Assembly: GCA_964057225.1 (NCBI GenBank) | Contig: OZ059895.1 | Coordinates: 4,464,001 to 4,528,000 of the forward strand | Reading direction: 5' to 3' | Source: Auanema rhodensis | Taxonomy: Eukaryota; Animalia; Nematoda | DNA: 64,000 nucleotides | Shown here: positions 54,001-63,999 of the stretch, in pieces | How the letters are laid out: the number at the start of each line of letters is the position of its first letter | Position numbering within the stretch: position 1 is the stretch's first letter | Made by a program: the position numbers and the translations under genes | The notes under the pieces: model-generated | Seen by the model: only the letters and a program-made list of their open reading frames with translations | The model's database searches: none | Told to the model about the DNA's origin: nothing

Positions 54001-56306
54001 AATCAATTCTTCAGGGTGAAAATCGAGGATATAAGTGTGAACTTATATCAGTTGATATCTCGGTGCATTTTCAAGCTAGCGCAAATCTGATAACACAGAT
54101 CGACGCAGCTTAAAAATCCGCATCGAATGCACTATACTTCATTGAGAAACGCTTAATACAAAAATTAGTTATGATCGTTTGAAAAATGATGCATTAGTGT
54201 ATGTTGAGTTTCCATGTACACTCAACATTGCTTCCAAAAACATTTTGACAAAAATTTTTTCGAAAAATTTCAAAAAAATTTAGCAAAAAGTAGATGTTTT
54301 TAGATTCCTTTTTTTAAGGCAAAAATGATGGACAATGTTATTCAACGAAAAAATCAATTCTTCAGGGTGAAAATCGAGGATATAAGTGTGAACTTATATC
54401 AGTTGATATCTCGGTGCATTTTCAAGCTAGCGCAAATCTGATAACACAGATCGACGCAGCTTAAAAATCCGCATCGAATGCACTATACTTCATTGAGAAA
54501 CGCTTAATAAAAAAATTAGTTATGATCGTTTGAAAAATGATGCATTAGTGTATGTTGAGTTTCCATGTACACTCAACATTGCTTCCAAAAACATTTTGAC
54601 AAAAATTTTTTCGAAAAATTTCAAAATAATTTAGCAAAAAGTAGATGTTTTTAGATTCCTTTTTTAAGGCAAAAATGATGGACAATGTTATTAAACGAAA
54701 AAATTAATTCTTCAGGGTGAAAATCGAGGATATAAGTGTGAACTTATATCAGTTGATATCTCGGTGCATTTTCAAGCTAGCGCAAATCTGATAACACAGA
54801 TCGACGCAGCTTAAAAATCCGCATCGAATGCACTATACTACATTGAGAAACGCTTAATACAAAAATTAGTTATGATCGTTTGAAAAATGATGCATTAGTG
54901 TATGTTGAGTTTCCATGTACACTCAACATTGCTTCCAAAAACATTTTGACAAAAATTTTTTCGAAAAATTTCAAAATAATTTAGCAAAAAGTAGATGTTT
55001 TTAGATTCCTTTTTTTAAGGCAAAAATGATGGACAATGTTATTCAACGAAAAAATCAATTCTTTAGGGTGAAAATCGAGGATATAAGTGTGAACTTATAT
55101 CAGTTGATATCTCGGTGCATTTTCAAGCTAGCGCAAATCTGATAACACAGATCGACGCAGCTTAAAAATCCGCATCGAATGCACTATACTTCATTGAGAA
55201 ACGCTTAATACAAAAATTAGTTATGATCGTTTGAAAAATGATGCATTAGTGTATGTTGAGTTTCCATGTACACTCAACATTGCTTCCAAAAACATTTTGA
55301 CAAAAATTTTTTCGAAAAATTTCAAAATAATTTAGCAAAAAGTAGATGTTTTTAGATTCCTTTTTTAAGGCAAAAATGATGGACAATGTTATTAAACGAA
55401 AAAATTAATTCTTCAGGGTGAAAATCGAGGATATAAGTGTGAACTTATATCAGTTGATATCTCGGTGCATTTTCAAGCTAGCGCAAATCTGATAACACAG
55501 ATCGACGCAGCTTAAAAATCCGCATCGAATGCACTATACTACATTGAGAAACGCTTAATACAAAAATTAGTTATGATCGTTTGAAAAATGATGCATTAGT
55601 GTATGTTGAGTTTCCATGTACACTCAACATTGCTTCCAAAAACATTTTGACAAAAATTTTTTCGAAAAATTTCAAAATAATTTAGCAAAAAGTAGATGTT
55701 TTTAGATTCCTTTTTTCAAGGCAAAGACGATGGACAATGTTATTCAACGAAAAAATTAATTCTTCAGGGTGAAAATCGAGGATATAAGTGTGAACTTATA
55801 TCAGTTGATATCTCGGTGCATTTTCAAGCTAGCGCAAATCTGATAACACAGATCGACGCAGCTTAAAAATCCGCATCGAATGCACTATACTACATTGAGA
55901 AACGCTAAATACAAAAATTAGTTATGATCGTCTGAAAAATGATGCATTAGTGTATGTTGAGTTTCCATGTACACTCAACATTGCTTCCAAAAACATTTTG
56001 ACAAAAATTTTTTCGAAAAATTTCAAAATAATTTAGCAAAAAGTAGATGTTTTTAAATTCCTTTATTCGAGGCAAAGATGATGGACAATGTTATTCAACG
56101 AAAAAACTTCAGGGTGAAAATCGAGGATATAAGTGTGAACTTATATCAGTTGATATCTCGGTGCATTTTCAAGCTAGCGCAAATCTGATAACACAGATCG
56201 ACGCAGCTTAAAAATCCGCATCGAATGCACTATACTACATTGAGAAACGCTTAATACAAAAATTAGTTATGATCGTTTGAAAAATGATGCATTAGTGTAT
56301 GTTGAG
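1..56306. repeat. Satellite DNA array: ~160 head-to-tail copies of a 351-bp AT-rich monomer, continuing off the left edge
   Basis: The monomer start AGTTGATATCTCGGTGCATT recurs at 1, 352, 703, 1054 and onward (period 351). Copies differ by a few substitutions and rare 1-bp indels. The last full copy (55803-56147) is more diverged, and the final copy is truncated at ...GTGTATGTTGAG (56306). Confidence 0.99.
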
Positions 56307-56967
56307 CGTTCCGTTATGCTCCCGCGTCGATCTTACAGACCAATGGAGTCTACAAGATGAGCGTGGTAGTATTCCAGATGTAGCGGTTAAACATGGAGCA
56401 TAAGGATAAACATAAGACTCGAGAAAGATTGGTTTATTATATCTACGTGATTACAATAAGATACATATAACTAAGTAAAGGTTAAACTAATAGAGAACAG
56501 AGAGAGAACGACCAACCATCCATGATCGTCCCTGAGGCAAAGCTGAAGTGTTGTAATATGGAAAAGGGCGGGTCGTCTTCTCTCAGTCTCGCATTCTCTG
56601 ACTCTAACCCGCCTGCTACAGCTTCGTCATATGAATGTAATGCATTGATCATCCGAATGGAACGTGCCCTTTTTCGAGTTTATGTCGCGTCCTCGCGACA
56701 ATCAAAAGTTTTGACTTGATTAACTGTAGCAGAAGGGTTAATGTGTGTATTAAAGTACATGTTACAATACAATATTTTACGTAAAATTCTTATAATATGA
56801 ACATAATACAATATAAAACATCAGTATCTGAAAAGAATTAAAAAAAATTTTTTTAACCAAATTATGAAAGTTTTAACCCTCTTTAACGAATACTAGACTA
56901 TGTTTTATTGGCGAACGTGCTTATAAAATAATAAAAAAAAAAAGTTTTTAAGCATAACGCTCCAACA
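56300..56967 (-). mobile_element. 668-bp TG...CA element with terminal inverted repeats and a 6-bp TSD; probable solo LTR (BEL/Pao-like TGTT...AACA ends)
   Basis: The left end reads TGTTGAGCGTTCCGTTATGCT. The right end reads AGCATAACGCTCCAACA (reverse complement TGTTGGAGCGTTATGCT). AGTGTA lies immediately on both sides (56294-56299, 56968-56973). The strand is tentative, based on a minus-strand AATAAA at 56433-56438. No PPT or PBS adjoins the right end. Confidence 0.7.
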
Positions 56968-57360: not shown

Positions 57361-60300
57361 TTAATGGTTTTTTCTTGATGGTAGCCAATTTGTATCCGAA
57401 AGGTCTTCTGGTTCGTCATAAGAGTCTTCATCGTTGTTGTTTCCGTTGATAACCTCTATGATTTCAATATCGCTGTCATCGTCTGAGCTGTCTGTACGTG
57501 TACTGGGCTTATGTGCGATTCCGTCATCTGTTTCTCGATTAAATAATTTGAGATTGTCCTTGTGAACGTCTTGGATCTTTCCGAAAAGGTTTTTGATTTG
57601 AACCATGTTTCCCTTCACATTAATAACTTCAAATGGTCCATCATAAGCTTTCCGAAGCTTTTGTCCTGGCTTGTGCATTTTCACAGCTAACATAACGCAG
57701 TCTCCTTCTTGTATATCTCTTTCGTGAGTGCGTAATCGAGCATCATGTTTCTTTTTTGCTAATTCTTGATGCTTTTCCAAATTTTCTTGAATGATTGTTT
57801 TCTGTTTGCTTCGGATTTTCTCAATATTTTCAACCTCCTTTGAAATTTCCTTTGGTTCAGTTGTTTCGGGGTATAAATCTTTATCCAATCTCAAACGGCT
57901 TTCTTTCCCGAATAGTACAACGTATGGTGATATTCCTGTGGTTGCATGCGTTGTGGTGTTCAATGCAAAGGTAATTTTTGGCAAAAACATGTCCCAATCA
58001 GTGACATCTTCGTTGAGATAATGTGTGAGTCCTTCTTCTAACGTTCTATGAAGTCTTTCTACTTGTCCATTGGAATTCTTCTGATGTGGGAGTGTTGATT
58101 CATGTTTGATACCGAGTTTTTCGCACATGTCTTCAAATTTCCTTGATAGGAAGTTGGAACCGCGGTCTGTTATTAAGCGGTTCGGTGGTCCATAGACATA
58201 TACAAAGTTTCTGAGGAATCTATCAATGACAACTTCACTAACAATTGTTGGTATGGCGATAGTTGTAGCCCATTTGGAGAAAGAGTCTTGTATTGTGAGG
58301 ACATAGCTGTTGTTCCTTTTTGATGTTGGGAATGGTCCCATGATATCCATATGTATTCTCTCAAATGGTTTTGATGGTATGTTAAATTGACCCATCGGTT
58401 GTACGGTCATAGCATGAGGATCTTTCTTTCGTTGTGCACATTTGATGCACTGTTTTACGTATTTTGCTATGTCGTTCTGCATGTTAGTCCAGGAAAATCT
58501 TCGTAATATGGCTTCTTTTGTTTTGTTGATTCCTTGATGCGCCCCGATTGTTGGGTCTTCATGAAATTCTTCAATGATTTTGTTAATTATATCACTATCC
58601 GATGGCAATATTAACGCTGGATGAGGTCTTTTGACGCTTGGTTTTGTGTAGAGTAAGTTGTTTATAACACAATAACGGTCATTTTGAATCATATTTTTCT
58701 TCGTTCTGTATTCAATCTCAGCTATTGTTCTCTTGATCCAAGGAGTATTTTGTTGGATTGAGCTGAATTCTGGTAACTTCACAACATTTACTTGTTGTGT
58801 CTCAATTTTCTCTTTCGAATTCGTCTTTTGTTTCTTGTTCGACGTCTTTGGATCGTTAGCTTCATCTCCAATGTATCTAGAGAGTGCGTCACAGACTTTG
58901 TTTAATCTGCCTTCTCGATATTTGATCTCAATATCGTATTCCTGTATGACCAATTGGAACTTTGCTAGTCTTCCAAATAGGTCTCTTCTAGTTAGTAAGC
59001 TTGTCAATGGGCGATGATCGGTGATGCAAATTGAATGTGATCCAAGTATGTATGTTCGAAACTGTGCTAGAGCGTAAACTAAGCCTAAGGCTTCTATCTC
59101 TATGGGAGCATAGTTACGTTCTGCTTTTACTAATTTCCTACTTGCGAAAGCAATTGGATGTAAGTTCTTGAATGGTTCGTTTGGATCTTCGGGCTGCAGT
59201 AATACTGCGCCTATGATGTTGCTGCCATCACTTTCAATGATGAAAGTTCGGTCTGATCGTGGTGGTTTCAGTACCGGTGCTTCGATTAGTCGTTCCTTTA
59301 GCTTATCTAGTGAACGTTGACATTCGCTAGTCCAATTGAAGTCTGCGTCTAGCTTAGTAAGGTCATACAGCGGACTTGCTATATGTGCAAAATCTTTAAT
59401 AAATTTTCTAAAGAATCCGACCATTCCTAAGAATGCTCTTACTCCTGTGGGTGTTTGAGGAGCAGGGTAATCGCGGATGGCGGAAACTTTCTGTTGATCG
59501 GGCTTAACTCCGTCTCTTCCGACAATGAGTCCGAGAAATTTCACTTCTGGTCTTGCAAATGAACATTTCTTGAGTTTAATCTTAAATCCTAGTCTTTCTA
59601 CAGCGAGTAATACTTCTTTGATGTCTTCGAGGTGTTGTTCTGCGCTGTCTGATATGACTAGTAAATCGTCCAAATAGACAAATAGTCGGCATTTACATTT
59701 ACTTTGGAGATATCTCACGGCTGTTTGAAAGGTATGTGGCGCACCACATAATCCCATAGGCATTCTCCTGTACTGATAAGTCCCACTATTGGTGGTAAAG
59801 GATGTGAGTGGTCTATCCTTCTTCAATAATGGTATTTGGAAAAAGCCAGAAACAAGATCAAAATTAGAAAAGTATTGTGATCCAGCCGCTAAGTCAATGA
59901 TATCAGAGATGTTAGGAATCACATATGTCTGTTTTCTTGTAACGTTATTTAAGGCTCGGAAATCCGTAACGAAACGGAATGTTTCGTCTTTTTTCTTAAC
60001 GAGAACGACAGGGCTGTTGAACAAAGATGTCGATCGTTCTATTATCCCTTGCTCGAGCATTTCTTGGACTTGTTTTTCTACCTCTTCTTGTTTCCCGAGA
60101 GGTATACGTGAAATTCGTGGCTTTGGCATATCCATATCCGTTCGTAGTGGTATCTTGTGTTCTACTGGTCCTTTGAACAATCCTATCTTTTTATCTTCAT
60201 TGAGGAATGCCTTCTTACGCTGACGAATGATGTTTCGTAGTTCGTCTTTTTGTCGTTGCGTAAGATCAGCCTCTTTTAGGTCAAGTTCTTTCATGAAATC

Positions 60301-63300
60301 ACCAGGGAAGTGAGGTAATTTGCCTTCCCAGTCTGCTTCTGGTGGAATATAGTCGTACTGTTGTTCTGTTGAGAAGATTTCATAGTCCGGTATAGATCCT
60401 ATTTCGGCTTCTGCAATCACAGTGCCGGCCGGTATTTCTATGAATTCTTTAGAATTGTTCCGGAATTGGATATTGATGGAGTTAACATCGCGAAATGCTG
60501 TGTCGTATCGAGGTGAGAGAGGAGTATTGTCGTTTGGTTTAATCATAGCGATTAAGTCTTCTCCGATTGGGTTCTCTAATTGGACTTGGAAATTAAAAAC
60601 TTGTCGAGGAAGTAGACTCCGCGGCTCCAAGGTTATCAAATTAACAGTTTTTGATATCCTGTTAATATCCCCGTTAATTCCGCTAGCCAAAGGTACTACA
60701 TGATTTCCAATTTCCAGTGTTCTTTTGTATGGTCTTAGTTTCATGCCAATGTTTTGACAGTCAAGTGTTTTCATGAAATCTAATCCAATCAACGCTGGCG
60801 ATGGACAGTCTTTGTCGTCTGATATGAAGAATGTATGGTCGATTTCGTAACCGGCTATTTCGACGGTTAAGTCGATAGTACCAATGAATACAAATTCTGA
60901 TCCGTTCGCTGTTGTTGCTCTTAATGTATTCTTCTTAACAAAGTCATTCAAAGCTAAGTAGTGTAGTGTCGATATTCTTATGTAACTGACGGACGAACCT
61001 GAGTCCCATAAAGTTAGGATCAGTCTATCATTAACAGTCATCCATAGAAGTGGTAGTGCTTGATCTTTCTTTTTGGAAATCGAGCAAACTAATGGTAGTG
61101 CGATTGGTATGAATGTGAGCATTGATGGATAGTATTGTTTCATTATGTGTCTTGGAATCGGTTGATCCGGATGACTAACTAATTCCAAAGTTTCTTCGTA
61201 TGTTGGTAGATCACTGTCGTGATCTTTGAGTGCAATATGCATAACTGGTATGCCTACTGGTTTGAAGAAATAGATCTTTACAATGAAACCTATCACAAAG
61301 AGTATGATGGTAAATAATGTAATTGCACCGATCGTTATTAGTGTTCGCTCAATCGTTCCTGCAATTGTATCGATGAATGACTTCCATGTGCTCTTGGTGA
61401 ATTCTTGAGCTTTCGATATGTAGTCGCTACTTTTCTTTAGTACACTGAATGTAGCTGATATCTTTGGATCATTGTGAATTGTGTGAAGAACGTGATTCTG
61501 ACGAATCGATGCTAAACTCGCACCGTAAGCTATGGCTGTGGTCATTGAGTATACACGAGACGATAAATTAGTGTATAAGTGAGCTCCGGTGAATTTTAAT
61601 GGTGTTATTTTTTCGTGATGAAGTCCGTCCCACATTGATACAAGACTGACGTCTGCAGTCCCATTAATTCCTTTCCATTCACCTTCGCTAGACCAGATAT
61701 CTGTTGGTACGTGATCACAGCTTATTTCTTTACCATGAGGTAAAAGATCCTTGGATCCGGGTGCTGCAAACAGTAACTGTCCGTCTTGTGTCCAGACTGG
61801 GGTTTCGAGATAGCATGTGCCATTTACGGTGTGATTGTGATAAATGGTTTTCTCTAGCACTGTAGGGCATACATGTATATGCAAAATTTCATTGCCTACA
61901 AACCGTGCGGCTATATCTTCTCTTCCCAGTATTGTTCGCATTGCGATTGTTGGTTCAATTTGTAGAATTGATTTCCATAATTCCAGATACCGATTTTGTA
62001 TCTCGCAAATCGATTCGTATGATTCTTCAAAATGTTTCTGCAATTCCTCTTGGATCATTGTAGTAGCATACTGTAAATGATCTTGGGCTATTTTGTTCGA
62101 TATATTTTGACGAAACTCTTGTACCGAGTCAATTTTCGTTGCTATGTATCTCGCATTTGCTTCCACTAAATTTGAGGTTTCTACTGATGGTGTTGAAGAA
62201 GCTCGGTTTTTTCGAATCAATGTTGGAGAGGCTTCGGTTGTCTCTTGTATTTTTGGAATCTGTGCGTCTTTGTATATGGCATAGCTTCTTGTTGTTGTTG
62301 GCGAACGAGCGGTTGATGTTGTGGTGCGTGCTGTTGTCGCAGCGGTCGTGTGAGGCGCCGTTGTTGATGGCTGTTGCTTCCATGATGGTGCTCTTGTGGT
62401 GGTTGATGCATTTGTGTGAGGATTGTTCGTTATTTGCGGCTGTATTGTGGTAACTGATTGGATTGTTCCCTTCTGTTCGATCAAAGGTTGGACTGGTGTC
62501 ACAACCGCGCCGCTAGCCGCGCCGCCTGCAGCGACGCTAGCCGCGCCGCCTGCCGCGACGCTGGATGTCCGTGTTGCGATTTGCCGAAAATTTGTTTCAT
62601 TTTCCTCTGCCATTAAGATTTGAAGTTGTTCTTGTGTTATCCTACTTGATGTATAAGGTGTTTTTACATTATTGAGCAGGGGTAAAAATATTTCCAATAA
62701 TAATTTCTTTGAAAGATTGCTGGGCTTGATCAGCTTAGGGTGTGGACCGATCGGTATTCCATAATTATTCTTCCTGTCATAAAATAGTTTATCTGTATTT
62801 GGCATGAATTGTCGTGATGCTGGCAATTTTATAAATTTTCTGTCATCAATAAATGCTGCAGTTTTATTCCATCGTACTGTTGTGAGGGTTTTTAGTTCTC
62901 TTAGTAAATTGATCGTTGCCTTAATGAATTCGCTTTTCTTCTGTTCCTCGTCAGTTAGTATACGTTTCCTTATTGGTGGCATTTGTATGAACGTTTGTAG
63001 GACTTCTTGTCGTGATGGAACTGTCAGTCCTTCTTCAATTATAACTGGTGTATTGGTTAAATTGAGAGCTATGCTTTCAATTCGTTCGCGATATGAACCT
63101 TCTTTCTTCCTTATGATTTCATCGAATTCGATTACTGTCAAACGATCTGATATTTGTTCGAGAAGCTGTTCAGATGTTAAGTATGATATTGCTGCCTTTG
63201 TAGTAATGGCTAATTCTCTTTGTGCTATATAATATAGCAGAGCTTCTTCTTTATCACTGAAATCGTATTGCTTGAGAAAATGTCGAACAGAATGTTCATT

Positions 63301-63999
63301 TATTTGAATTCTGAAGAAAAATTCGAATTTTTCTTTATGTGATGTTATCCATGCCTTTAGAGAGTATGTTGGATCTACTAAACGTCTTCCTTTGATTATA
63401 GGAATAATTGAAGTAATACCGGGATTACTCATTAATGGTCTTAGGAAAGTATATGGACAGACGTGAAGCAATACTGTTTCATAATCTTCAACTTCGTTGA
63501 TCCGATCTTGATCCAGTGGGAAAGAACATCCTTCGGTGACTGCACGTTTTGGTCTTTTAAACGGCAGCTTTTTGAACTCTCTTTCAATAAGGGTGGTTAT
63601 ATTGTTGTCGTTTGGAAATTTAGGAAGAATGATATAATTTCCTGATGTCGTATGGAACGCTGGCTGCCTGAAGCAAGAAGAAATAGGTTTCGGAGTTGGT
63701 TTGCTCGAAAGAATAAGTGCCGATTGTGTACTAGGGATTAAAATAGTATCTTGACTAATGATAGCGTCATATGTATGCATATCGATGTAATTACAACGTG
63801 AAGCAGTGGTTTGTGGGTCCCATATTATTATTGATGTACTTGATTCACAATTACCATGATGTGCATTGCATCCTTCCGTGTTTAATATTAAGTTTGACAA
63901 TATTGTATCGTCAGGCATACGGGTCATGACTCCGCGCTCTAATATTAGACGTGACCGCTCCTCGCACGCGTCGCGGTTGAACGCGCGCGCTGGGTCATA
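57361..63999 (-). CDS. Env(gB-like)-TM-PR-RT-RNaseH-IN polyprotein, 5'-partial
   Basis: ORF track gives 57361..63927 (2188 aa). I translated the frame upstream of that Met and found no stop to the window edge (YDPARAFNRDACEERSRLILERGV-MTRMPDD), so the true start probably lies outside the window. Stop TAA at 57361-57363; no internal stops or frameshifts. Confidence 0.95.
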   Translation of the reverse strand, partial: YDPARAFNRDACEERSRLILERGVMTRMPDDTILSNLILNTEGCNAHHGNCESSTSIIIWDPQTTASRCNYIDMHTYDAIISQDTILIPSTQSALILSSKPTPKPISSCFRQPAFHTTSGNYIILPKFPNDNNITTLIEREFKKLPFKRPKRAVTEGCSFPLDQDRINEVEDYETVLLHVCPYTFLRPLMSNPGITSIIPIIKGRRLVDPTYSLKAWITSHKEKFEFFFRIQINEHSVRHFLKQYDFSDKEEALLYYIAQRELAITTKAAISYLTSEQLLEQISDRLTVIEFDEIIRKKEGSYRERIESIALNLTNTPVIIEEGLTVPSRQEVLQTFIQMPPIRKRILTDEEQKKSEFIKATINLLRELKTLTTVRWNKTAAFIDDRKFIKLPASRQFMPNTDKLFYDRKNNYGIPIGPHPKLIKPSNLSKKLLLEIFLPLLNNVKTPYTSSRITQEQLQILMAEENETNFRQIATRTSSVAAGGAASVAAGGAASGAVVTPVQPLIEQKGTIQSVTTIQPQITNNPHTNASTTTRAPSWKQQPSTTAPHTTAATTARTTTSTARSPTTTRSYAIYKDAQIPKIQETTEASPTLIRKNRASSTPSVETSNLVEANARYIATKIDSVQEFRQNISNKIAQDHLQYATTMIQEELQKHFEESYESICEIQNRYLELWKSILQIEPTIAMRTILGREDIAARFVGNEILHIHVCPTVLEKTIYHNHTVNGTCYLETPVWTQDGQLLFAAPGSKDLLPHGKEISCDHVPTDIWSSEGEWKGINGTADVSLVSMWDGLHHEKITPLKFTGAHLYTNLSSRVYSMTTAIAYGASLASIRQNHVLHTIHNDPKISATFSVLKKSSDYISKAQEFTKSTWKSFIDTIAGTIERTLITIGAITLFTIILFVIGFIVKIYFFKPVGIPVMHIALKDHDSDLPTYEETLELVSHPDQPIPRHIMKQYYPSMLTFIPIALPLVCSISKKKDQALPLLWMTVNDRLILTLWDSGSSVSYIRISTLHYLALNDFVKKNTLRATTANGSEFVFIGTIDLTVEIAGYEIDHTFFISDDKDCPSPALIGLDFMKTLDCQNIGMKLRPYKRTLEIGNHVVPLASGINGDINRISKTVNLITLEPRSLLPRQVFNFQVQLENPIGEDLIAMIKPNDNTPLSPRYDTAFRDVNSINIQFRNNSKEFIEIPAGTVIAEAEIGSIPDYEIFSTEQQYDYIPPEADWEGKLPHFPGDFMKELDLKEADLTQRQKDELRNIIRQRKKAFLNEDKKIGLFKGPVEHKIPLRTDMDMPKPRISRIPLGKQEEVEKQVQEMLEQGIIERSTSLFNSPVVLVKKKDETFRFVTDFRALNNVTRKQTYVIPNISDIIDLAAGSQYFSNFDLVSGFFQIPLLKKDRPLTSFTTNSGTYQYRRMPMGLCGAPHTFQTAVRYLQSKCKCRLFVYLDDLLVISDSAEQHLEDIKEVLLAVERLGFKIKLKKCSFARPEVKFLGLIVGRDGVKPDQQKVSAIRDYPAPQTPTGVRAFLGMVGFFRKFIKDFAHIASPLYDLTKLDADFNWTSECQRSLDKLKERLIEAPVLKPPRSDRTFIIESDGSNIIGAVLLQPEDPNEPFKNLHPIAFASRKLVKAERNYAPIEIEALGLVYALAQFRTYILGSHSICITDHRPLTSLLTRRDLFGRLAKFQLVIQEYDIEIKYREGRLNKVCDALSRYIGDEANDPKTSNKKQKTNSKEKIETQQVNVVKLPEFSSIQQNTPWIKRTIAEIEYRTKKNMIQNDRYCVINNLLYTKPSVKRPHPALILPSDSDIINKIIEEFHEDPTIGAHQGINKTKEAILRRFSWTNMQNDIAKYVKQCIKCAQRKKDPHAMTVQPMGQFNIPSKPFERIHMDIMGPFPTSKRNNSYVLTIQDSFSKWATTIAIPTIVSEVVIDRFLRNFVYVYGPPNRLITDRGSNFLSRKFEDMCEKLGIKHESTLPHQKNSNGQVERLHRTLEEGLTHYLNEDVTDWDMFLPKITFALNTTTHATTGISPYVVLFGKESRLRLDKDLYPETTEPKEISKEVENIEKIRSKQKTIIQENLEKHQELAKKKHDARLRTHERDIQEGDCVMLAVKMHKPGQKLRKAYDGPFEVINVKGNMVQIKNLFGKIQDVHKDNLKLFNRETDDGIAHKPSTRTDSSDDDSDIEIIEVINGNNNDEDSYDEPEDLSDTNWLPSRKNH
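57530..58565 (-). other. Integrase: HHCC zinc finger, DD(35)E core, GPF C-terminal module
   Basis: FHEDPTIGAH...CIKC; D at 58345-58347 (IHMDIMGP), D at 58165-58167 (TDRGSNF), E at 58057-58059 (NGQVER), with 35 residues between the second D and E; GPF at 57631-57639. An acidic tail follows; no chromodomain is evident. Confidence 0.96.
58876..59247 (-). other. RNase H domain
   Basis: IESDGS..IGAVLLQ, PIAFASRKL..AERNYAPIEIEALG, TDHRPL, N.VCDALSR. Confidence 0.95.
59518..60125 (-). other. Reverse transcriptase domain (Ty3/gypsy type)
   Basis: SPVVLVKKKDETFRFVTDFRALN, DLVSGFFQIPL, MPMGLCGAPHTFQ, YLDD (59665-59676), KKCSF, VKFLG. Confidence 0.97.
60760..61050 (-). other. Retropepsin aspartic protease domain
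   Basis: LWDSGSSVSYI (catalytic D at 61003-61005), flap TANGS, and C-terminal ALIGLDFM. Confidence 0.92.
61264..61344 (-). other. Predicted transmembrane helix (aa ~862-888 of the ORF-track protein)
   Basis: TLITIGAITLFTIILFVIGFIVKIYFF has more than 20 uncharged, mostly hydrophobic residues followed by Lys. Confidence 0.9.
62511..62562. repeat. GC-rich 24-bp tandem duplication within the ORF, encoding (SVAAGGAA)x2
   Basis: CGCTAGCCGCGCCGCCTGCAGCGA, then CGCTAGCCGCGCCGCCTGCCGCGA, then CGCT. Confidence 0.9.

Follow-up and report, generated by a model that had tools for sequence, protein, structure and literature searches.

The locus described here raises the question of how a retroelement would make and process its proteins when the envelope glycoprotein stands in one reading frame with, and ahead of, its enzymes. 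In the 64,000-nucleotide stretch of DNA that was analysed (the window), the minus-strand frame at 57361-63999 runs for 2212 codons without a stop and is still open at the window edge, a run that would arise by chance with a probability of about 1e-63 at the local base composition. The frame belongs to a Ty3/gypsy element with a gB-type env in frame with, and ahead of, the enzyme genes. We consider it likely that the element is a nematode gag-env-pol endogenous retrovirus whose 3' part lies in the window. Its single long protein is predicted to pass through the ER membrane two times and would be cut by furin and signal peptidase as well as by the protease that it contains.

Architecture of the open frame

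A reading of the same DNA made from its letters (the sequence-only reading) had described a single stop-free frame leading from a glycoprotein through a transmembrane (TM) helix to protease (PR), reverse transcriptase (RT), RNase H (RH), and integrase (IN), and the open reading frame listing together with Pfam searches confirms both this order and its coordinates. The 2212-residue Env-TM-PR-RT-RH-IN frame (57361-63999, minus strand, as for all features of the element given below) was assigned from Pfam domains and from the alignment with a relative, P0002. Gag, the signal, the first third of the Env N-half, the PBS, and the 5' LTR lie beyond the window edge.

The frame opens with the C-terminal part of the Env N-half (63556-63999, aa 1-148), which is cysteine-rich, consists of beta-strands in the model, and aligns to residues 294-441 of P0002. 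It is followed by a furin-type site, RPKR (63544-63555, aa 149-152), the sole R-x-[KR]-R in the protein; by an inserted domain, predicted from its model to be all-helical (62620-63543, aa 153-460); and by a mucin-like Ser/Thr/Pro-rich stretch (62164-62619, aa 461-612), predicted to be disordered from its composition and pLDDT. The Env C-half (61345-62163, aa 613-885) comprises a long central helix and a part similar to gB domain IV, as indicated by Pfam, PDB, and Foldseek matches. In Pfam, Monjiviricetes_fusion (PF24664) covers aa 642-913 (E 8.6e-13, above the cut-off) and Glycoprotein_B (PF00606) covers aa 639-721 (E 1.3e-8, below the cut-off).

Next comes the TM helix (61282-61338, aa 888-906) and a predicted cytoplasmic linker (61039-61281), defined by its position between this helix and the protease domain. 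The aspartyl protease (60769-61038; Pfam match at aa 988-1077) has its DSG at aa 999, and the RT core (59524-60000; RVT_1 at aa 1334-1492) has YLDD at aa 1442. RNase H (58936-59334), assigned by Pfam (RT_RNaseH, aa 1556-1688), precedes the integrase (57607-58596), in which Pfam detects an H2C2 zinc finger (Integrase_H2C2, aa 1802-1859), the core (rve, aa 1876-1971), and a weak SH3-like C-terminal match (SH3_Tf2-1, only E 0.061). Between the frame and the inferred LTR, no ORF of at least 100 aa is present in the window.

According to a hydropathy scan, the 19-mer at aa 888-906 is the only strongly hydrophobic one (KD 2.66), and it falls within the TM segment that had been read at 61264-61344. 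The DSG is 92 aa past this 19-mer and about 85 aa past the end of the segment read earlier, in agreement with the distance of ~85 aa given for it. The 92 aa of the window compares with a median of 94 aa, ranging from 22 to 436, in 55 proteins. A second TM helix at aa 957-975 (61075-61131) was considered and rejected because this segment is proline-rich and has a poor insertion score. As a separate observation, the proline-rich hydrophobic stretch at 61075-61131, just before the protease, is kept across the rhabditid clade.

Gene order in relatives and in published nematode elements

A search with aa 615-1100 among proteins of near length returned one match, P0002 from Auanema sp. JU1783, which aligns from its residue 294 with 45% identity over 1414 columns. 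In this protein, a basic Asn/Arg-rich start is followed by a hydrophobic signal, located at residue 158, and then by the N-half of Env. It resembles the protein of the window in its furin site, helical insert, and TM-PR linker. Nonetheless, it represents a distinct family, and its mucin-like stretch fails to align with that of the window. Fragments from Auanema sp. JU1783 are found beside P0002 (P0003-5, P0009, P0011, P0014, P0034, and P0155).

The same segment was also compared with 1.84 billion representatives, giving 319 matches at E<=0.001, and the best 150 of these 319 were examined by local searches with the domains of the window. Env was detected in 124 of the best 150, and Env plus a Pol domain in one chain in 62 of them, Env being first in all 62. 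The order is thus conserved in diverged relatives, although many of these sequences come from eukaryotic gene models, in which splicing might bridge a stop codon. Moreover, 40 proteins have more than 120 aa before Env; this region is Gag-like in 36 of them (similar to Pfam-confirmed Gag regions), 26 of these 36 having Pol too, and a signal-like stretch stands directly before Env in 36 of the 40. Gag precedes Env in one frame in P0159, P0161, P0165, and others, and the full chain is also present in P0036, P0041, and P0053 (JGI and Logan). The named env-bearing relatives belong to Caenorhabditis, Acrobeloides, Aphelenchus, and Auanema, the rest being JGI, ENA, or Logan proteins, and the nearest named relatives overall are from Auanema, Heterorhabditis, Caenorhabditis, and Diploscapter. 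Two peculiarities were seen in passing: a tandem pair of protease domains is apparent in the env-first P0032, P0188, P0019, and P0008, which may be an effect of gene models or assembly, and P0237 is a 3096-aa gypsy polyprotein with Upf1-like helicase Pfam domains (PF13086 and PF13087) in the chain.

In the NERVs of Sacco et al. 2022 (J Gen Virol 103:001739), gag, env, pro, and pol reportedly follow one another in a single continuous frame, the RT being of the metavirus type and the glycoprotein similar to those of RNA viruses; a helicase or a further small ORF is said to be present in some of them. Two features of the nematode GAG-ENV-POL elements and NERVs are present in the window, namely env upstream of pol and an Env of the HSV/gB type. 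Chary and Hayashi (eLife 2026, PMC13524379) report GAG-ENV-POL errantiviruses in Nematoda, Bryozoa, and Platyhelminthes, all with only HSV/gB-type ENV, and credit Sacco et al. 2022 with the first report of the flipped ENV/POL order in nematodes. Their nematode elements are like the one described here in having a Ty3/gypsy Pol and a gB-type Env ahead of it, and their Caenorhabditis rows list LTRs of a similar length (~300-400 bp). Supplementary file 1 of that paper has 36 nematode rows, none of them from Auanema, and ENV-POL matches are recorded in two Auanema assemblies. In a word search, its main text proved silent on in-frame fusion, on the processing of a polyprotein, on splicing, and on any mucin-like part or insert of Env. 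The gene order of the window is genuine, though for nematode elements it has been published before. The sequence-only reading had taken env to lie downstream of pol, a premise that is wrong for the nematode GAG-ENV-POL lineages of PMC13524379, and since the order is catalogued there for nematode gypsy elements, its suggestion of a possibly undescribed layout does not hold.

Placement of the reverse transcriptase

Among solved structures, Ty3 is the nearest to the RT-RH region (E 1e-76), the next one being at 2e-46, and this result and the Pol order PR-RT-RH-IN bear out the Ty3/gypsy identity proposed from the letters. The env-bearing elements of the BEL/Pao group (Tas, Cer7/13, and Anakin) have env after the integrase, whereas in the window Env precedes the protease and no BEL/Pao-specific Pfam domain is found in the protein at E<=0.1. 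A search with RT-RH gave 432 matches at E<=1e-60; among the 120 of these 432 that were listed, 11 relatives have at least 54% identity, all of them from rhabditid nematodes and 10 of the 11 with a gB-type Pfam domain.

A quick maximum-likelihood tree places the RT of the window among env-first elements of nematodes; the clade (SH-aLRT 99) has 13 sequences, 12 of them with a gB Env. This tree holds 82 of the 148 RT-bearing sequences (all 40 with Env, 12 named, and 30 random) and was built without a BEL/Pao or copia outgroup and without the sequences named in PMC13524379 or Sacco 2022. The env-first layout needs about 10 changes on the tree, whose deep forks are weak, both in agreement with the published statement that env-first elements are not one clade. 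Two proteins from Strongyloides papillosus, P0193 and P0196, have an RT near the clade of the window, with ~900-1000 aa before the RT and a hydrophobic stretch at ~430-456; they give no match to the Env queries, and this part is possibly a far-diverged Env. A separate scan for RT loci returned one locus, L001, without an LTR pair and without Env.

Topology and processing of the chain

Because relatives carry Gag fused in front of Env via an internal signal, the element likely encodes one Gag-Env-Pol chain that crosses the membrane twice. Following its domain anatomy and standard membrane-protein biogenesis, Gag would be translated first, in the cytoplasm, the internal signal would send Env into the ER lumen, and the TM helix would stop transfer, Pol then following in the cytoplasm. 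This predicted topology supports the earlier view that Pol follows the Env anchor as a cytoplasmic tail. On the inner face of the Env-bearing membrane, Gag would be retained through its signal anchor and Pol through that of Env, and the two anchors would bring Gag, Env, and Pol to one budding site. It had also been proposed that Pol could be packaged through Env; such packaging need not replace that through Gag because in relatives Gag is part of the same chain. Furin would cut Env ahead of the variable insert. Cleavage by the protease at sites similar to [VI][NH]x[VIL] would detach Gag, shorten the Env tail, and set PR, RT-RH, and IN free.

This motif, which may be read as a candidate site of the element's protease, occurs in 33 of 47 TM-PR linkers (shuffles, mean 2.9 and maximum 9), with 8 of the 55 linkers left out for being empty or of excessive or insufficient length, and in 18 of 40 Gag-signal junctions (mean 1.5 and maximum 7), two counts that are not independent because the motif was chosen by eye from these two sets, the related proteins not being independent either. 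It is also present in 16 of 40 RH-IN linkers (shuffles, mean 3.4 and maximum 8) and in 15 of 41 PR-RT linkers (mean 6.5 and maximum 13), being enriched at every junction that the predicted topology leaves cytoplasmic. In the lumenal Env, no enrichment is observed (9 of 136 stretches versus 14.2 expected). The TM-PR linker of the window is without the strict motif and has the looser MHIA and VCSI, with strict matches at aa 1119 and 1737. A late-domain idea was also considered, given LPTY in the tail of the window's Env and PPSY in P0002; however, [LP]PxY occurs in only 3 of 55 linkers and therefore is not a family feature.

As judged from the sequence, Gag, Env, and Pol are likely all made together. 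Equal amounts of the three would be odd for a retroelement, and a shorter RNA, spliced or ending early, is the likely source of a Gag excess. Splicing could also have a larger role, with Pol and Env coming mainly from spliced RNAs (either a separate RNA for env or one that skips env and joins gag to protease) and the membrane-tethered Pol being a minor product. This would solve the Gag:Pol ratio, and the nematode gypsy element Cer1 is described as having no stop between gag and pol and a spliced mRNA derived from the genome RNA (PMC10309623). However, between the TM and the DSG no acceptor exceeds 4 of the 7 letters of TTTTCAG, in line with the earlier remark that this interval holds no TTTCAG-type acceptor, and the only TTTCAG of the frame is at 63262. 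Moreover, the frame from Env to PR and the length of the linker are kept in dozens of relatives at 25-35% identity, which would be needless if env were spliced out. We regard such a dominant use of spliced RNAs as unlikely.

The Env glycoprotein and its insert

The membrane fusogen recognized in the sequence-only reading corresponds to a class III, gB-type protein according to Pfam, PDB sequence matches, and fold matches. In the sequence search of PDB, the top matches of Env are herpesvirus gB, and the Foldseek search with the Env model also has gB on top, over the C-half only; the model of the whole Env is weak (pTM 0.39). Herpesvirus gB and the Monjiviricetes (chuvirus-type) class III fusogens share with this Env the central helix and domain IV region, and a furin site ahead of the central helix. 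In contrast, those fusogens stand alone as type I proteins, whereas the Env of the window is one part of a polyprotein encoded by a retroelement and carries an insert of 460 aa.

What had been read as a glycoprotein ectodomain includes this insert of ~460 aa (aa 153-612), behind RPKR and before the central helix. It consists of a conserved domain of ~300 aa and then the Ser/Thr/Pro-rich stretch, where these three residues make up 38% of aa 461-612 and pLDDT is below 50 over aa 476-605. Among the 58 proteins having both Env halves, a furin-type site is found near the spacer in 30; the spacer has a median of 54 aa and reaches at least 200 aa in 17 of the 58, that of the window being among the three longest. 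Within the mucin-like part, a 24-bp tandem repeat is located at 62507-62562, and in three runs the contigs lack one of its 24-base units.

A model of the helical insert domain from five sequences reached a pTM of 0.65. Its fold has no Foldseek match at E<=0.001 in PDB and BFVD (best VIA Z 3.6), and the domain is without a Pfam match and without a usable ESM Atlas match. A search among shorter proteins also gave no match, and this search was insensitive, since known Auanema fragments were missed too. None of this shows a new fold for the insert. In a comparison of 269 proteins, the domain is common to only P0002, P0014, P0034, and P0155, all of them from Auanema sp. JU1783, and an all-against-all comparison of 32 long spacers gave at least five unrelated groups. 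Thus, unrelated insert families are seen in the Env spacer across lineages (62164-63543 in the window; P0007, P0008, P0020, P0032, and P0159), often followed by a Ser/Thr/Pro-rich stretch. A role of the insert in receptor binding or shielding is a guess.

An insert of this size, at the junction of the Env halves, could instead block fusion, the layout being inherited from an ancestor and the chain acting as a membrane scaffold for intracellular particles. The length of the spacer speaks for this possibility, but the window's Env keeps its furin site, invariant cysteines, and central helix, and each of its halves shares ~50-60% identity with the Auanema relative, a level not below that of the protease region. 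Also, long spacers recur in other lineages, so a non-fusing Env seems to us quite improbable.

Integration site and further copies

The element is inserted inside a unit of a host satellite array with a 351-bp unit (1-56306; 160.5 copies, 98% matches). Directly where the satellite stops, at 56306, begins the inferred 3' LTR (56307-56664), which has 358 bp, 6-bp inverted ends, and AATAAA at 56438. A probable polypurine tract, likewise inferred from the letters, lies two bases before this LTR (56667-56675). The ends of the inferred LTR read CG...CG, a pattern that was read off the sequence, so that its shuffle count is no test, and the boundary is tentative, with only one LTR inside the window. 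LTR ends are usually TG...CA, with known exceptions. Contigs from public runs depart from the window at 56305-56307 and continue in different flanking sequence, and one contig breaks off at 56665; this pattern suggests further copies and is consistent with the LTR boundary.

Whole or in part, the stretch is present in 12 of the 14 public runs listed, with half or more of it in 10; these runs come from four studies, one of which may be the source of the window itself. Four runs were aligned in detail. In X1, a contig at 60354-62935 bridges Env, TM, and protease with nine other letters and one in-frame 24-base gap, and overlapping contigs of X2 and X4 cover the Env-TM-protease stretch. The length differences within the frame, among the alignments listed, are of 3 and 24 bases, all in frame. 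In X12, a run that is RNA only by guess, the TM-PR linker is covered by a 224-base contig at a depth of 2.4, which was not counted toward expression or the absence of splicing. A one-off chimera or assembly error joining a viral glycoprotein to a gypsy pol, considered in the sequence-only reading and conceivable in a long satellite where assembly is hard, has a practically negligible probability because the X1 contig crosses the junctions without a frameshift, X2 and X4 cover them, and the 62 relatives with Env and Pol in one chain share the order.

Implications for nematode gag-env-pol elements

Taken together, the observations on the insert and the LTR allow a tentative reading, which we hold as possible rather than probable. 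The furin loop would be a swappable module, accepting at least five unrelated insert families that are usually followed by a mucin-like stalk. The helical domain of 300 aa of the Auanema type would be a receptor-binding or shielding head, making Env a class III fusogen of one chain that brings its own targeting domain, and the integrase would act on LTR ends with CG and not CA.

The layout itself is not new, and the interest of the likely Gag-Env-Pol chain is in how it would be threaded through the membrane, cut, and balanced. For the cutting, the motif counts at the junctions point to specific candidate sites of processing. Also, the cells that such elements enter may depend in part on the variable insert of Env. 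Finally, if the host belongs to a free-living nematode lineage of the laboratory type, this copy, which looks recent, would offer a convenient natural setting for studying how the chain is threaded, cut, and balanced.
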